Below are positions 25,580 to 55,706 of a stretch of 64,000 bases of DNA, piece after piece; position 1 is the stretch's first letter, and every line of letters begins with the position of its first letter. Under the pieces are notes generated by a model. That model was not told the DNA's origin, ran no database searches, and was given only the letters and a program-made list of their open reading frames with translations. The DNA comes from Minisyncoccota bacterium (GTDB lineage: Bacteria > Patescibacteriota > Minisyncoccia > UBA6257 > JAGOQP01). The position numbers and the translations under genes were made by a program. The stretch lies in NCBI GenBank assembly GCA_017991375.1, contig JAGOQP010000002.1, positions 2,259 to 66,258 of the forward strand. Reading direction: 5' to 3'.

Positions 25580-25942
25580 ATGAGCAGCAATCAAAGATCA
25601 ACATTAATAGCAATTATCCTATTACTTCTTGCGGGGAATATCTTTTTCTCGTATCAGTATGTAGCACTCAAACGTGCCAATGACCAGGGACGTGTTGCTA
25701 TTGATCTACTTAACAGTCGTAGTAAAACGCTTGAGTTTACAAAATTATTCATCCAGAAGGTGATTAACGCAACTGGAGAAATAAGTTTTGATACGCGTCT
25801 TGAGTTGGAAAACGCCGTACGCGCGTTGAATGACAAAGAAATTCTTAATCAATGGAACGCGTTTGTAGCGAGTAAAACAGAAGAAGAAGCTCAGGAGAAT
25901 ACAAAGTTACTTCTTAATGTACTTATTAAGAAATGTCAGTAA
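25580..25942 (+). CDS. small membrane-anchored hypothetical protein
   Basis: 120-aa ORF with one N-terminal TM helix. Confidence 0.4.
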   Translation: MSSNQRSTLIAIILLLLAGNIFFSYQYVALKRANDQGRVAIDLLNSRSKTLEFTKLFIQKVINATGEISFDTRLELENAVRALNDKEILNQWNAFVASKTEEEAQENTKLLLNVLIKKCQ

Positions 25943-26132
25943 TGCTTTTTGGATGTTGATTAATTGCTCATACGTCCCCGCCCTTTTGATTTCATAAAAA
26001 GGGCGGGGTTTGATTTTAGGAGCGCATTATCGGTACACTTATTAAGTAGATGAACATCCTTACGCTTTGAGTTTCTTATTCTGTTTTAATCTGCGTTGTT
26101 AGTGGTCAGTGGTAGGTTGTTAGTTACTATTT

Positions 26133-26204
26133 GCCCCCATAGTTCAATGGATAGAACGACTCCCTTCTAAGGAGTAAATCTAGGTTCGATTCCTAGCGGG
26201 GGTA
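26133..26204 (+). tRNA. tRNA-Arg (anticodon UCU)
   Basis: Acceptor GCCCCCA/CGGGGGT, D-arm GTTC-AATGGATA-GAAC, anticodon stem ACTCC/GGAGT with loop CTTCTAA, T-arm CTAGG-TTCGATT-CCTAG. Confidence 0.8.
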
Positions 26205-26356
26205 CGGAGTATCCACGAGCAAGCAAATAATTTTGCTTGCGTCAGGAATCGAACGCCGGAGCTTGTGCGAGTGAGCACACGAGCACGCGAGGCGGTGCCT
26301 AGCCCGAGTTGAGCGACGGCGAAACGAGAGGCGAAGGAGATTTCCTAGCGGGGGTA
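26205..26356 (+). repeat. tRNA 3'-associated conserved structured element ending in a duplicated tRNA-Arg 3' end
   Basis: Hairpin GCAAGCAAATAATTTTGCTTGC; core GAATCGAACGCCGGAGCTTGTGCGAGTGAGCACACGAGCACGCGAGGCGGTGCCTAGCCCGAGTTGAGCGACGGCGAAACGAGAGGCGAAGG; then TTTCCTAGCGGGGGTA, which equals the last 16 nt of the tRNA. The same core lies after tRNA-Tyr (51172-51373); a covarying version lies after tRNA-His (27152-27310). Confidence 0.8.
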
Positions 26357-26436
26357 CGAACGAGTGGAAAGTGAAAAGTGGAAAGTTAAACGAATAAAAG
26401 CAAAGCAAATTGAAGGATGGAAAGTTAAACGATTGG
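26357..26436 (+). repeat. GGAAAGTTAAACGA-type short direct repeats
   Basis: CGAACGAGTGGAAAGTGAAAAGTGGAAAGTTAAACGAA...GGATGGAAAGTTAAACGA; the same block occurs (reverse strand) beside tRNA-Arg(CCU) at 11130-11298. Confidence 0.8.
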
Positions 26437-26663
26437 TCGTTGGTCATTGATTCTTAACCGCAAGACACTCATCTTTAATCGAGAGAGATGGTAGTTAGTT
26501 TTAAGATCAATCCTTGCGTAAGCACTGTTTTCGTATTAGAATACGTTTTGCGTATTTTTATTAATCCCAGTCACTGGTTGTCTGTTGTTAGTCGTTTGTT
26601 GTCTGCCTACGGCAGATCCTGAGCGTAAGTCGAAGGGTAAGTTACTCATATGCCGCGGTAGCT

Positions 26664-26699
26664 CCCTCCGTCGTCCATTTGTGATGGACTATGGAAGGG
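26664..26699 (-). repeat. REP-like hairpin element, copy 3
   Basis: Reverse complement CCCTTCCATAGTCCATCACAAATGGACGACGGAGGG; immediately preceded by a 13-nt tRNA-Phe 5' fragment (GCCGCGGTAGCTC). Confidence 0.7.
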
Positions 26700-26765
26700 C
26701 ACGCAGTGTGCTCCTAGTGTTTGTGCCGTTGTCTGTTGTTAGTCGTTTGTTGTTTGTTGCTATAT

Positions 26766-26872
26766 GCCGCGGTAGCTCAGTGGGTTTAAAGCAAACGATT
26801 TTGCTTTAAACGGGAAATCCAAAAGATATATTGGATTTTCCCTGGAAGAACAGAAAACCGAAGGTCTGCGAT
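26766..26872 (+). repeat. tRNA 5'-associated element: duplicated tRNA-Phe 5' end (18 nt) plus conserved two-hairpin module
   Basis: GCCGCGGTAGCTCAGTGG, then GTTTAAAGCAAACGATTTTGCTTTAAAC (hairpin), GGGAAATCCAAAAGATATATTGGATTTTCCC (hairpin), TGGAAGAACAGAAAACCGAAGGTCTGCGAT; about 90% identical module at 51838-51948 led by the tRNA-Thr 5' end. Confidence 0.8.
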
Positions 26873-26923
26873 ACGAAAGCACAAGACAATAAAGATATAT
26901 AAAAGCAACAATAGAAATAATAT

Positions 26924-26995
26924 GCCGCGGTAGCTCAGTGGTAGAGCAGACGCCTGAAGAGCGTCGTGTCGGGGGTCCGATTCCCTCTCGCGGCA
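26924..26995 (+). tRNA. tRNA-Phe (anticodon GAA)
   Basis: Acceptor GCCGCGG/TCGCGGC, D-arm GCTC-AGTGGTA-GAGC, anticodon stem GACGC/GCGTC with loop CTGAAGA, T-arm GGGGG-TCCGATT-CCCTC. Confidence 0.8.
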
Positions 26996-27077
26996 CTGGA
27001 TTGACACACGACTCGCAATTGATTCTAAAAAATAGTTCTTTTGTGGGTTGTCCGTTGTCGGTCGTTAGCAAGTATAT

Positions 27078-27151
27078 GGTGGCTATAGTTTAACGGTAAA
27101 ACTTCGGTTTGTGGAACCGATGTCAAGGGTTCAACTCCCTTTAGCCACCCA
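27078..27151 (+). tRNA. tRNA-His (anticodon GUG) with G-1
   Basis: Extra 5' G; acceptor GTGGCTA/TAGCCAC; anticodon stem TCGGT/ACCGA with loop TTGTGGA; T-arm AAGGG-TTCAACT-CCCTT; discriminator C. Confidence 0.75.
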
Positions 27152-27310
27152 GAATAGATTTACGTCTATTTTTGTGGCTAAGCGAGCAAACTGCTTTGCT
27201 CGCGTAAGAAGTTGAACGCCGGAATATGTGCAATTATAAATTGCACAATGAGGCGGCGACTAGACTGTGCTATTTAGCACAAGTCGGAGTCAACTCCCTT
27301 TAGCCACCCA
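27152..27310 (+). repeat. tRNA 3'-associated structured element ending in a duplicated tRNA-His 3' end
   Basis: Hairpin GCGAGCAAACTGCTTTGCTCGC; core GAAGTTGAACGCCGGAATATGTGCAATTATAAATTGCACAATGAGGCGGCGACTAGACTGTGC... with compensatory change in the GTGC...GCAC hairpin relative to the Arg/Tyr copies; then TCAACTCCCTTTAGCCACCCA, equal to the tRNA-His 3' 21 nt. Confidence 0.75.
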
Positions 27311-27315
27311 AAATT

Positions 27316-27861
27316 ATGCAAAAAGAAATTGAAGTCAAAATACAGGTCTCCGATTTAAAGCCCATACAAGAAAAATTGGAAAGTTTAGGATGTGTGATTT
27401 CTAACCCAATAGCGCAACACGACACCATTTTTAATCTTAATGGAATTACTATCAATGATCATAAAACTCCGGTATTGCGTATAAGAGAGCAAAATGGAAA
27501 GTATATTTTTACTTTTAAACAAGACGTAACCAATGAGCTTGACTGTATTGAGCATGAGACAGAGATAACAAACAAAGACGAACTCGTTAAGATTATTGAG
27601 CGACTTAATTTTGTAAAAACGGTTGAGGTTAGAAAAACGCGTCGTAAGACACAATATGGGGAGTACGAAATCTGTTTGGACGACGTTGATAATCTCGGGT
27701 TATTTGTAGAGGCCCAGAAGATGTCAGAACAAGACGGAAAAATAGTACAGGATGAGCTAATAGATTTTTTGGTTGAGCTCGGAGTCCCACGAGAAGGGGT
27801 TGTGTCCAGAGGATACGATACGCTTGTGTTTGAGAAGTTGCACCAAAAAGAGAGCTTATAA
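27316..27861 (+). CDS. CYTH-domain protein (class IV adenylyl cyclase/triphosphate tunnel metalloenzyme family)
   Basis: N-terminal EIEVKIQV (ExExK motif); 181 aa. Confidence 0.7.
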   Translation: MQKEIEVKIQVSDLKPIQEKLESLGCVISNPIAQHDTIFNLNGITINDHKTPVLRIREQNGKYIFTFKQDVTNELDCIEHETEITNKDELVKIIERLNFVKTVEVRKTRRKTQYGEYEICLDDVDNLGLFVEAQKMSEQDGKIVQDELIDFLVELGVPREGVVSRGYDTLVFEKLHQKESL

Positions 27862-51086: not shown

Positions 51087-51171
51087 GGGTAGGTAGTCTC
51101 GTAGGGGCCGAGGGCGGTCTGTAAAACCGTTGGCCAATGTGCTCGCGTGAGTTCGACTCTCACCCTACCCA
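51087..51171 (+). tRNA. tRNA-Tyr (anticodon GUA), long variable arm
   Basis: Acceptor GGGTAGG/CCTACCC, anticodon stem GCGGT/ACCGT with loop CTGTAAA, T-arm GTGAG-TTCGACT-CTCAC. Confidence 0.75.
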
Positions 51172-51373
51172 CATAATAAAATTATTTTCCTTCACGCAGT
51201 GAGCGTGAGGGAGTAATTTTATTAAGTTGGTCAAGAAAAAACCAACTGCTTGGTTTTTGAGTGAGAGTCGAACGCCGGAGCTTGTGCGAGTGACCACACG
51301 AGCACGCGAGGCGGTGGCTAGTCTGAGTCGAGTGACGACGAGACAAGAGGCGAGGCCGACTCTCACCCTACCC
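51172..51373 (+). repeat. tRNA 3'-associated conserved element ending in a duplicated tRNA-Tyr 3' end
   Basis: Hairpin CCAAGAAAAAACCAA-ctgc-TTGGTTTTTG; core GAGTCGAACGCCGGAGCTTGTGCGAGTGACCACACGAGCACGCGAGGCGGTGGCTAGTCTGAGTCGAGTGACGACGAGACAAGAGGCGAGGCC; then GACTCTCACCCTACCCA, equal to the last 17 nt of the tRNA. Confidence 0.8.
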
Positions 51374-51521
51374 ACTCGACGCGCCCTGAGTAAAATCGAA
51401 GGGCTTGCTCGTGGCAAGCCACATTCTATGAGTGAATTTCAAACACGCACGATAATCAGTTGTTATGAATTTTGTTGGTTCCTTGTTGTTAGTCGTGGGT
51501 GGTTAGTCGTTAGTTATATAT

Positions 51522-51545
51522 GCCATAGCTCAGCTGGGTTTATGG
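51522..51545 (+). repeat. truncated tRNA 5'-fragment + GTTTA module
   Basis: GCCATAGCTCAGCTGG-GTTTATGG; a decayed copy of the 5'-associated element upstream of tRNA-Thr(UGU). Confidence 0.5.
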
Positions 51546-51588
51546 ATTTTATTGTTAGTTGTAAGTAGTTAGTTGTTAGTCAATGCAT

Positions 51589-55553: not shown

Positions 55554-55706
55554 TGTTTTTTACCAACCACCAACCACTAACAACTAATCACTATTCTTAT
55601 TGTAGCAGAAAAACCATACCATTTGTCAAAATGAGTAAAATCAAACAATAAATGCACAATGACACACAGACACGGGAGAATCGCAAAGAGAGCATGAAAA
55701 TTAAAC

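Follow-up and report, generated by a model that had tools for sequence, protein, structure and literature searches.

Why should an intact transfer RNA (tRNA) gene be followed by an exact copy of its own 3′ end, with a conserved core set between the two? The question is raised by a 64,000-nucleotide (nt) stretch of DNA from a Minisyncoccota bacterium (contig JAGOQP010000002.1; hereafter the window), where such an element lies downstream of the genes encoding tRNA-Arg(UCU), tRNA-His(GUG) and tRNA-Tyr(GUA). We find that the three belong to a real family of elements, present across the candidate phyla radiation (CPR; Patescibacteria), that folds in a strand-specific manner and is tied to the 3′ ends of tRNA and transfer-messenger RNA (tmRNA) genes. 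Part of each element is conserved, and part is templated on its host gene. An initial annotation of the window had described at each of the three loci a succession of tRNA, hairpin, core and copied tRNA 3′ end, and this arrangement is indeed found at all three. The copies of the tRNA 3′ end, which it had given as 16–21 nt, are exact over 16 nt (Arg), 19 nt (Tyr) and 21 nt (His).

Ten tRNA genes are identified in the window by ARAGORN, and the three that carry an element on their 3′ side all have it on their own strand. From 5′ to 3′ the element comprises a hairpin of 9 bp (hp1), an inverted copy that covers the T loop of the host and the 3′ strand of its T stem, two helices (P2 and P3) that meet at a three-way junction, and a direct copy of the host from C56 or G57 to C74. 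Within the window the motif GAACGCCGGANNNNGTGC is confined to the Arg, Tyr and His elements, with one occurrence in each, and a covariance model constructed from relatives recovers exactly three copies there (E = 3e-33, 2e-32 and 3e-21). The cores of the Arg and Tyr elements are identical at 76 of 87 positions; the measured value is thus 87%, in place of the ‘about 90%’ of the initial annotation. The His core is identical to either of the others at 53–55 of 88 positions (∼60%).

The organization is well illustrated by the Arg locus, where, as at the other two, all the features lie on the plus strand. The host tRNA (26133–26205; ARAGORN, and Rfam tRNA at 64.5 bits) has G53 at 26184, the T loop at 26185–26191, the 3′ strand of the T stem at 26192–26196 and C74 at 26205. 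The 9 bp of hp1 (GCAAGCAAA-UAAU-UUUGCUUGC) are located at 26219–26240, from the sequence and its alignment to the covariance model. The inverted copy AGGAATCGAAC, read directly from the sequence at 26244–26254, is the reverse complement of the tRNA from G53 to nucleotide 63 (26184–26194), and provides the 5′ strand of a helix that we designate T*. P2 (26254–26294) has a CGCC/GGCG base, a GGA/GA internal loop and a variable hairpin beyond this, and corresponds to helices 4–7 of the family, which are 92–100% paired. P3 (26298–26337; family helices 8 and 9) has the form CCUAG...CGAAGG and includes tandem G-A mismatches. The direct copy (26342–26357) contains the last two bases of the T loop, the 3′ strands of the T stem and acceptor stem, A73 and C74, and is identical to 26190–26205 over its full 16 nt. 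The initial annotation had taken the sequence GAAC as the opening of the core, where it is really the end of the inverted copy of the host T loop and T-stem 3′ strand. It had missed both this inverted copy and its pairing with the first ∼10 bases of the direct copy.

Covariation is strong throughout the family. From a MAFFT alignment of 112 copies, RNAalifold predicts 33 base pairs, of which 26 exhibit compensatory changes. The structure was refined on the covariance-model alignment; fitting to the model inflates the pairing somewhat, and the independent MAFFT/RNAalifold result agrees with it. In the refined structure of 39 pairs, 92.0% of 4216 cells are paired, compared with 68.6% in column shuffles (none of 500 reaching the observed value) and 35–45% when the partners are slid. 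Both sides change in 33 of the 39 pairs. Thus the covariation that the initial annotation proposed should be sought is found both by RNAalifold and by comparison of pairing with shuffled columns. hp1 is paired to 94%, and each of its nine pairs has changed on both sides across the family. T* is made up of the T stem, two pairs involving loop positions 59–60 and a further two or three pairs. Positions 57–58 are occupied either by UC, in Watson–Crick pairing, or by GA, as a sheared tandem, opposite an invariant GA, and this exchange at the top of T* leaves the geometry of the helix intact. P2 retains the CGCC/GGCG base and GGA/GA internal loop in the family as a whole, and P3 follows the consensus (G/C)CUAG-NCC...GGN-CGAAG(C/G) with its tandem G-A mismatches. 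At the junction P3 is stacked directly upon T* without a linker, while P2 branches off through strands AA and GUG.

Which strand is folded? G-U pairs outnumber A-C combinations by 39 to 2 in hp1, by 24 to 9 in P2 and by 38 to 9 in P3 (101 to 20 in total). An A-C combination corresponds to G-U on the opposite strand; with G-U so much the more frequent, it is the single strand of tRNA sense that folds and is under selection. Every match to the model is co-oriented with its host gene. The two strands are not distinguished by minimum-free-energy z-scores. Given the co-orientation with the tRNA, the simplest identity for the folded strand is RNA, although it could be the non-template or lagging-template strand of DNA. 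Thus of the two readings offered by the initial annotation, that of a structured single strand linked to tRNA is strongly supported by the covariation and strand bias, while site-specific integration was not demonstrated. We also considered a protein-coding role, and rejected it. Open reading frames (ORFs) overlapping the window elements give no Pfam hit, and the conservation is that of compensatory base-pairing.

The segments derived from the host are as regular as the core. The direct copy always starts at C56 or G57 of the T loop and ends at C74, taking in CCA as well when this is encoded. In most of these CPR tRNA genes C74 is present but the full CCA is not, and the copy in the element retains the C. 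Among 96 copies for which the host tRNA was mapped, the 12-nt T-stem and acceptor part of the direct copy has no mismatches in ∼60, while the repeat is decayed in ∼20%. The inverted copy spans both sides of the junction, covering G53–U55 and C56–N65, and the complement of T-loop positions 59–60 is correct in 84 of the 96. Thus the 3′ strand of T* is a copy of the host gene, and its 5′ strand is the Watson–Crick complement of that copy. Where the T stem of the host has a wobble or mismatch the element has the Watson–Crick partner of the 3′ strand at 10 sites, the 5′ base of the tRNA at three, and neither at 14. Since the inverted copy pairs with the start of the direct copy, the element as a whole is a hairpin whose stem replicates the 3′ half of the T loop and the T stem of the host, and whose ‘loop’ is the core. 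In a minority of elements hp1 is preceded by a copy of the acceptor 5′ strand. Of 108 elements, only ∼9 have it in perfect form and 10 more with a single mismatch, where shuffles predict 0.1 and 4.2, respectively. It looks like an original feature that is decaying, and with this copy mostly degenerate the acceptor 3′ copy is unpaired within the element in most cases. The element is thus a look-alike, or ‘shadow’, of the acceptor and T-arm half of its host, in which the P2–P3 domain replaces the T loop and the 3′ acceptor strand of the host follows, with no D or anticodon arms.

Some other accounts of these segments were rejected. One had the 5′ strand of the T stem as a direct copy of the T-stem 5′ strand and T loop of the tRNA, with the core inserted in the loop. 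With T loops that are not palindromic (TTCAAGT, TTCGATT, TTCGACT and TTCAACT), however, the element holds the reverse complement and not the direct sequence. Repeats that appeared to run past the tRNA by 36–80 nt, as might a long target-site duplication, proved to be tandem copies of the whole unit. An encoded CCA in the copy, taken as the mark of a reverse-transcribed mature tRNA, is unsupported: CCA is present in the copy alone in 7 of 62 cases, and in the gene alone in two.

The Tyr and His loci have the same components with some variation. The tRNA-Tyr gene (51087–51172) was located by ARAGORN and is absent from the Rfam list at the gathering threshold. A terminator-like hairpin at 51187–51213 separates it from the element. 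This begins with hp1 (AAAAACCAA-CUGC-UUGGUUUUU; 51237–51258, from sequence and model alignment), followed by the inverted copy GTGAGAGTCGAAC (51261–51273), which on sequence comparison is the reverse complement of the tRNA at 51151–51163 at all 13 of 13 positions. The model alignment then places P2 at 51273–51313, with a variable part that is 96% identical to that of the Arg copy, and P3 at 51317–51356. The direct copy at 51357–51375 is identical to 51154–51172, from C56 to C74, over 19 nt. The predicted junction of this locus without the element reads GAGTTCGACTCTCACCCTACCCACTCGACGCG. The tRNA-His gene (27079–27150; ARAGORN and Rfam) is also followed by a terminator-like hairpin, AATAGA...TCTATT with a run of T (27152–27174), seen in the sequence and the minimum-free-energy fold; the consensus scan missed it because it has too few G-C pairs. 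Sequence comparison reveals a copy of the tRNA 5′ acceptor strand (GTGGCTA) at 27174–27180 that pairs with the acceptor 3′ copy at 27301–27307, and in the predicted minimum-free-energy fold this helix closes the whole element, like a tRNA. Neither this copy nor the hairpins preceding the Tyr and His elements figured in the initial annotation, which they correct. hp1 (GCGAGCAAA-CUGC-UUUGCUCGC; 27182–27203, from sequence, model alignment and fold) is followed at 27206–27217 by the inverted copy AGTTGAAC, the reverse complement of GTTCAACT. Its stem part has partly diverged, so that 10 of 13 positions match, eight of them contiguous. P2 (27217–27255) and a short version of P3 (27259–27290) are placed by both the model alignment and the fold, and the direct copy at 27290–27310 reproduces 27131–27151 exactly over 21 nt.

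How widespread is the element? We scanned prokaryotic contigs, one genome per species, for the exact pattern GAACGCCGGA-N20-40-GAGGCGG-NNN-CTAG and found at least 119 matching stretches (here given L numbers), bearing out the suggestion of the initial annotation that further copies might be sought. Among the matches listed all but one are from Patescibacteria/CPR, of many classes. They include the Magasanik-, Komeili-, Nomura-, Jorgensen-, Kuenen-, Wolfe-, Yanofsky-, Ryan-, Kaiser-, Uhr-, Moran- and Kerfeldbacteria, together with Saccharibacteria, Microgenomates, Paceibacteria and Minisyncoccia. The exception, from a deltaproteobacterium (L097), was rejected as a chance match that the covariance model fails to recover. 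A number of metagenome-assembled genomes with the element are labelled ‘uncultured Gammaproteobacteria’ (L002, L017, L018, L030, L047–L049, L051, L069, L078, L113 and others). These labels are probably wrong, since RecA and other proteins of these genomes are 70–73% identical to those of contigs labelled as CPR.

A tRNA identified by ARAGORN ends 24–250 nt upstream on the same strand in 96 of 124 matches, most often at 25–100 nt. The hosts are more than 30 different tRNA species of essentially every isotype, and in ∼65 matches an exact 15–21-nt copy of the 3′ end of the host tRNA is found 33–38 nt after the CTAG sequence. The matches lacking a mapped tRNA are explained by the edges of loci, by tRNAs that ARAGORN missed, by second copies within tandem arrays and by two tmRNA hosts. 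Among the missed tRNAs is that of L045, where the element follows a tRNA containing a group I intron. The tmRNA hosts are at L020 (5356–5856, minus strand) and L041 (7527–8000, minus strand), and the L020 element copies the T arm and acceptor 3′ strand of the tmRNA. Most elements are ∼130–170 nt in length, reaching ∼200 nt at the Tyr locus of the window. Occupancy is patchy, at three of the ten tRNAs in the window and 110 of 219 tRNA and tmRNA genes in loci that had been selected for holding an element. As the initial annotation had thought worth checking, there are many tRNAs of the same kinds without an element. Whole units occur as tandem arrays in L005, L009, L074, L078, L081, L095, L103 and L111, and L119 has two copies ∼600 nt apart. 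Truncated copies also exist, for example at L010 (3169–3310).

A second subfamily of like architecture with a different P3 was observed at L089 (1992–2171, plus strand) and L016 (2729–2884, minus strand), and divergent relatives with other cores are also present at L026 (5454–5593, minus strand) and L064 (7260–7404, minus strand). Examples of the divergent cores are GAAAGGCGGAGCC...GGCGAGCCC, and a long P3 with GGAGCCAYUUAG...YUUAGUGAGCUG. These relatives sometimes adjoin a copy of the main family in the same genome. The superfamily extends beyond what the exact pattern captures. In L028, L037, L094 and L101 an extra small hairpin, AAGCGUACUCGCGG, lies between the core and the copy of the T-stem 3′ strand.

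Does the element belong to any known family? Rfam 15 at the gathering threshold gives no match over the window elements, as the initial annotation had suggested should be checked, and with E raised to 10 over 25900–27400 nothing credible falls on them. The sole overlap is with mir-92_2 at 27214–27259 on the minus strand, at 17.8 bits against a gathering threshold of 70 (E = 3.9). At sixteen related loci Rfam found only tRNA, tmRNA and one group I intron, this being in the tRNA upstream of the L045 element. That search did therefore detect a genuine intron, while the group I model (RF00028) matches no element and the host tRNAs are intact; nor does the tRNA clan of Rfam match the element. In the viral collection IMG/VR the strict pattern gave no matches, and the first 100 of 120 matches to a loose pattern were all rejected by the covariance model. 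blastn against phage and plasmid collections returned nothing. When the ORFs lying up to 2.5 kb from over 100 elements were clustered, no cluster of integrases, recombinases, transposases or reverse transcriptases emerged, and there are no tnpB, iscB or cas genes near more than 100 copies. We found no description of such an element in the published full-text literature, where the nearest topics are group I introns in the tRNAs of Patescibacteria (PMC13011429) and tRNA fragments derived from attachment (att) sites (PMC9897764). This is therefore a large, uncatalogued and apparently undescribed family, and we have found no known family that contains it.

Comparison with known systems reveals partial resemblances to several. 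Integrative elements at tRNA and tmRNA genes likewise leave the host gene intact and create a direct repeat from the T loop to the 3′ end, and such a repeat of the 3′ part of the tRNA or tmRNA is present here. However, we found neither an integrase nor phage, plasmid or integrative and conjugative element relatives with the same attP. The unit is ∼130–200 nt and non-coding, with an interior common to more than 30 tRNA species, and unlike those elements it has an inverted host complement that pairs with the repeat, together with RNA-like covariation and strand bias. A parallel may also be drawn with integron attC sites and the attP(+) hairpin of CTX-phi, used by XerCD. There too structure is kept while sequence varies, folding is strand-specific, direct repeats flank the unit, and a duplex resembling the target site is formed by the pairing of two inverted segments that lie ∼90 nt from each other. 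Yet no integron or Xer context is found at our elements, which have neither a cassette nor a phage genome attached. A GTTRRRY/RYYYAAC core is lacking beyond the GAAC/GTTC supplied by the T loop, and the G-A-rich three-way junction has no counterpart. REP/BIME and miniature inverted-repeat transposable element (MITE)-like repeats are also short, non-coding, multi-copy, hairpin-forming and 3′ of genes, with homogeneity within genomes and decayed copies. In contrast, our element is strictly located at tRNA and tmRNA 3′ ends, is in part templated by the host and is conserved across a superphylum. It has neither family-wide terminal inverted repeats nor a target duplication of fixed length; the only inverted segments are the host-specific inverted copy and direct copy, with the repeat set by tRNA positions 56–74.

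Among structured RNAs, the tRNA-like species (mascRNA from MALAT1, the bacterial YrlA Y RNAs and viral tRNA-like structures) also place a coaxial helix resembling the acceptor and T arm at the 3′ side of another RNA, and our element might plausibly be a substrate of the tRNA end-processing enzymes. But those RNAs retain the T loop and elbow, where our element has a T-stem-like helix with the two-helix P2–P3 domain in place of the loop. Moreover the neighbouring gene is the source of its stems, which are not shared family-wide, and in most copies the 5′ acceptor strand is absent or has decayed. Group I introns, which are frequent in Patescibacteria (PMC13011429), occur in tRNA anticodon loops and the tmRNA T loop; they too are structured RNAs tied to tRNA and tmRNA, with a guide-like segment complementary across the junction. 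The element differs in having a two-helix core of ∼87 nt, and the host gene is uninterrupted, so that no splicing is needed. The omega RNA of TnpB/IscB has a single-stranded guide at one end of its scaffold; in our element an unpaired host-identical tail of 9–11 nt follows the scaffold, but the first 10 nt of the ‘guide’ are paired within the element. In intrinsic terminators a G+C-rich hairpin leads directly into a U tract, and no such tract follows hp1, P2 or P3.

The behaviour of the cores within and between genomes is informative. Elements in the same genome at different tRNAs are 0.73 (P2) and 0.69 (P3) identical, whereas for elements that share a tRNA but come from different genomes the values are 0.60 and 0.57, against a background of 0.58 and 0.55. 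P2 is 100% identical between L005 (Asp) and L034 (Ser), and 97% identical between L031 (Ser) and L039 (Leu), although in both cases the stems are host-specific; the same is true of the 96% identity between Arg and Tyr in the window, and L009 and L112 share 97%. The elements of tRNA-Pro(UGG) in two species (L013 and L103) are different, having an almost identical spacer and hp1, with a P2 like that of paralogues in their own genomes. This has the signature of vertical inheritance combined with homogenization within the genome, and at least this one pair looks orthologous. It follows that recent transposition is not needed to generate the similarity within genomes, possible though it is. A search for an empty site by synteny at the tRNA-His locus found the closest homologues of the CYTH-domain gene to be 55% identical, with no synteny.

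What could the function of such an element be? The interpretation we favour, with a confidence that stops a little short of even, is that of a co-transcribed RNA that imitates the half of its host made up of the acceptor and T arm, with P2–P3 standing for the T loop. It would be transcribed by read-through from the tRNA promoter, having none of its own. We infer the read-through because 64 of 88 copies (73%) have no terminator-like hairpin between the tRNA and hp1, while 24 (27%) have one. Such a hairpin follows the direct copy in 21 of 88 copies, about as often as it follows tRNAs without an element (31 of 109). The element would then act as a folded RNA, mimicking the 3′ half of a tRNA or a minihelix, and its T*/acceptor part would be of the kind recognized by the enzymes of tRNA and tmRNA ends, i.e. 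RNase P, RNase Z and the CCA-adding enzyme. Alternatively, its acceptor copy might compete with the true 3′ strand for the 5′ acceptor strand of the tRNA. P2–P3 may offer a conserved surface to a factor common to CPR bacteria. Copies would be inherited vertically, with cores homogenized within the genome by gene conversion. The direct repeat of 19–21 nt with the tRNA would be kept identical, spawn the tandem arrays and allow clean loss by unequal exchange or slippage.

A number of considerations weigh against this interpretation. Transcription, processing and any partner are all deduced from sequence, and since G-T wobble and G-A pairs form in single-stranded DNA too, the folded strand may act as DNA. 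The patchy occupancy noted above and the decay or truncation of roughly 20% of copies suit a dispensable or selfish element equally well, and the mostly degenerate copy of the acceptor 5′ strand also counts against a functional mimic. A generic function as RNA gives by itself no reason for a stem templated on the local gene. Indeed the first acquisition of the host-specific inverted and direct segments is left unexplained by this and every other reading.

The element may, alternatively, be mobile. A selfish, non-autonomous mobile element could home in on tRNA and tmRNA genes at their T loop and 3′ end via a folded single-stranded RNA or DNA intermediate. The inverted copy would then be a guide-like segment or folded att site pairing with C56–N65 of the target, the duplication of C56–C74 would keep the host gene intact, and the chemistry would fall to host enzymes or to an enzyme encoded elsewhere in the genome. 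We regard this as the main rival, doubtful in itself but nearly as likely as the RNA mimic. tRNA and tmRNA genes, to which the family is strictly confined, are classic targets of integrative elements, and group I introns are known in tmRNA T loops, according to PMC13011429 and its citation of Williams 2002. The inverted copy covers both sides of the junction (G53–U55 and C56–N65), like the guide sequence of an intron, and the patchy occupancy, decayed copies and tandem arrays are as expected of such an element, as are host-specific stems flanking near-identical cores at different tRNAs (100% for L005 and L034, 97% for L009 and L112 and 96% for the Arg and Tyr elements of the window). That last similarity is explained equally well by gene conversion among old copies, however, as seen with L013 and L103. 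Neither an insertion event nor a pair of empty and filled alleles was observed, no associated enzyme was found near the elements, and they are absent from the viral, phage and plasmid collections searched. No ribozyme family matches the core, whose size falls short of that of any known self-splicing intron. There is no known mechanism by which a new target could template both copies afresh, inverted and direct, and the terminator-like hairpin of the tRNA that precedes the element in ∼27% of copies is awkward for simple insertion into the T loop. A more speculative form of the idea, which we think unlikely, is that of a new class of mobile or replicating element at the RNA level. Such a ‘tRNA shadow’ would recognize the T loop and 3′ end common to tRNAs and tmRNA, use the target as template for its closing stem (an inverted complement together with a direct copy of C56–C74), and so sit harmlessly behind any tRNA, with host enzymes or its own three-way-junction domain as catalyst.

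The initial annotation had seen in the duplicated tRNA 3′ end the signature of site-specific integration, and the loci might accordingly be the scars of classical integrases, the tRNA and the partial copy being attL and attR and the interior the remains of attP arms after loss of cargo, or else att-only miniature elements mobilized in trans by a tyrosine integrase. A direct repeat from the T loop to the 3′ end is the pattern that integrases leave in tRNA and tmRNA genes (as stated in PMC9897764 where it cites Williams 2002), and tmRNA is a host here too. Yet we consider this very improbable. At more than 100 independent loci the unit is only ∼130–200 bp and never holds an integrase; the same interior is found at more than 30 tRNA species, whereas the members of an integrase family are as a rule restricted to a single site or very few; and neither covariation of hairpins nor a bias between G-U and A-C is expected of duplex arms that bind protein. 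There is no match in viral contigs, nor in phage or plasmid collections, simple insertion with duplication of the target does not account for the host-specific inverted complement, and the signature must also be reconciled with the hairpin of the tRNA preceding about a quarter of copies and with at least one pair that looks vertically inherited. The element might instead be a purely cis-acting signal at the end of a transcript, a module of tRNA-like punctuation, termination or stability that marks where the tRNA transcript ends or where the downstream mRNA begins, and has no separate existence as an RNA. It is always in the 3′ trailer of the tRNA, its T*/acceptor mimic has the look of a substrate for RNase P and RNase Z, the next gene in the window has its start codon 6 nt beyond the end of the His copy, and terminator-like hairpins are about as frequent after it as after ordinary tRNAs. 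But it is present on only a subset of tRNAs and its downstream context varies widely. hp1 and P2–P3 are far more elaborate than a processing site needs, and the acceptor 5′ copy that a substrate of RNase P or RNase Z requires is degenerate in most copies. This too therefore seems improbable to us as the whole explanation.

The CPR make up a large share of bacterial diversity, and their genomes are very small, so that a conserved module of ∼150 nt behind many tRNAs and the tmRNA is unlikely to be free baggage. If the element acts as RNA, it would constitute a new and widespread class of structured RNA in which a conserved domain is grafted into a stem copied from the neighbouring gene, and would point to tRNA maturation, quality control or tRNA mimicry specific to the CPR. 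If it is mobile, tRNA genes would be reached by a novel route that needs no enzyme encoded by the element itself, and target-templated insertion would gain a new example. In practical terms, partial tRNA copies located downstream can mislead tRNA annotation and genomic-island finders in CPR genomes, and the covariance model could be used to annotate thousands of loci.

The neighbours of the elements in the window are ordinary genes, including gyrB and the CYTH-domain gene, whose start codon at 27316 is that lying 6 nt beyond the His element. In related genomes some neighbours recur, namely genes for a small membrane protein, a YraN-like protein and the CCA-adding enzyme. The last of these lies beside element-bearing tRNAs in Paceibacteria at L016 (5150–6614), L032 (3783–5256), L022 (1155–2643) and L089 (106–1165), and the L016 element ends 22 nt before its start. 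ORFs for YraN-like endonucleases are found near elements in seven loci. This neighbourhood probably reflects synteny of the lineage, and not partners of the element.

Other repeats are found close to the tRNA genes of the window. Immediately 3′ of the Arg element there is a 14-nt direct repeat (GGAAAGTTAAACGA), with two copies 39 nt apart within 26380–26432. The promoter-proximal region of tRNA-Phe with its first 13–18 nt is present three times between 26577 and 26941. The sequence ATATGCCGCGGTAGCTC(AGTGG) is found at 26648, 26762 and 26920, the last being the real tRNA-Phe gene, and a 29-nt G/T-rich block occurs upstream of the tRNA-Phe 5′ copies twice, at 26577 and 26728. This region looks like a graveyard of partial duplications of the tRNA-Phe 5′ end, in mirror image to the 3′ duplications of the elements. 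After the second tRNA-Phe fragment (26771–26855) there is a hairpin resembling hp1 (UUUAAAGCAAA-CGAU-UUUGCUUUAAA), and then a second hairpin (GGGAAAUCCAA...UUGGAUUUUCCC). The covariance model aligns this segment weakly (10.7 bits) as an element without the P2–P3 core, and it may be a core-less relic, or may have arisen by chance. Upstream of tRNA-Thr (51589) a tRNA 5′ fragment with promoter-like context, ATATGCCATAGCTCAGCTGG, is located at 51522–51540, and does not match the 5′ end of tRNA-Thr. Finally, a G/T-rich motif with a periodicity of 7 nt (GTTGTTAGTCGTT and variants) lies just upstream of most tRNA genes on the sense strand, with 55 matches compared to 21 expected. Its sites include 26095–26128, 26577–26596, 26728–26761, 27054–27066, 51485–51511, 51551–51584 and, on the minus strand, 55565–55591, among others, and it is probably an upstream promoter element of the tRNA genes in this organism.

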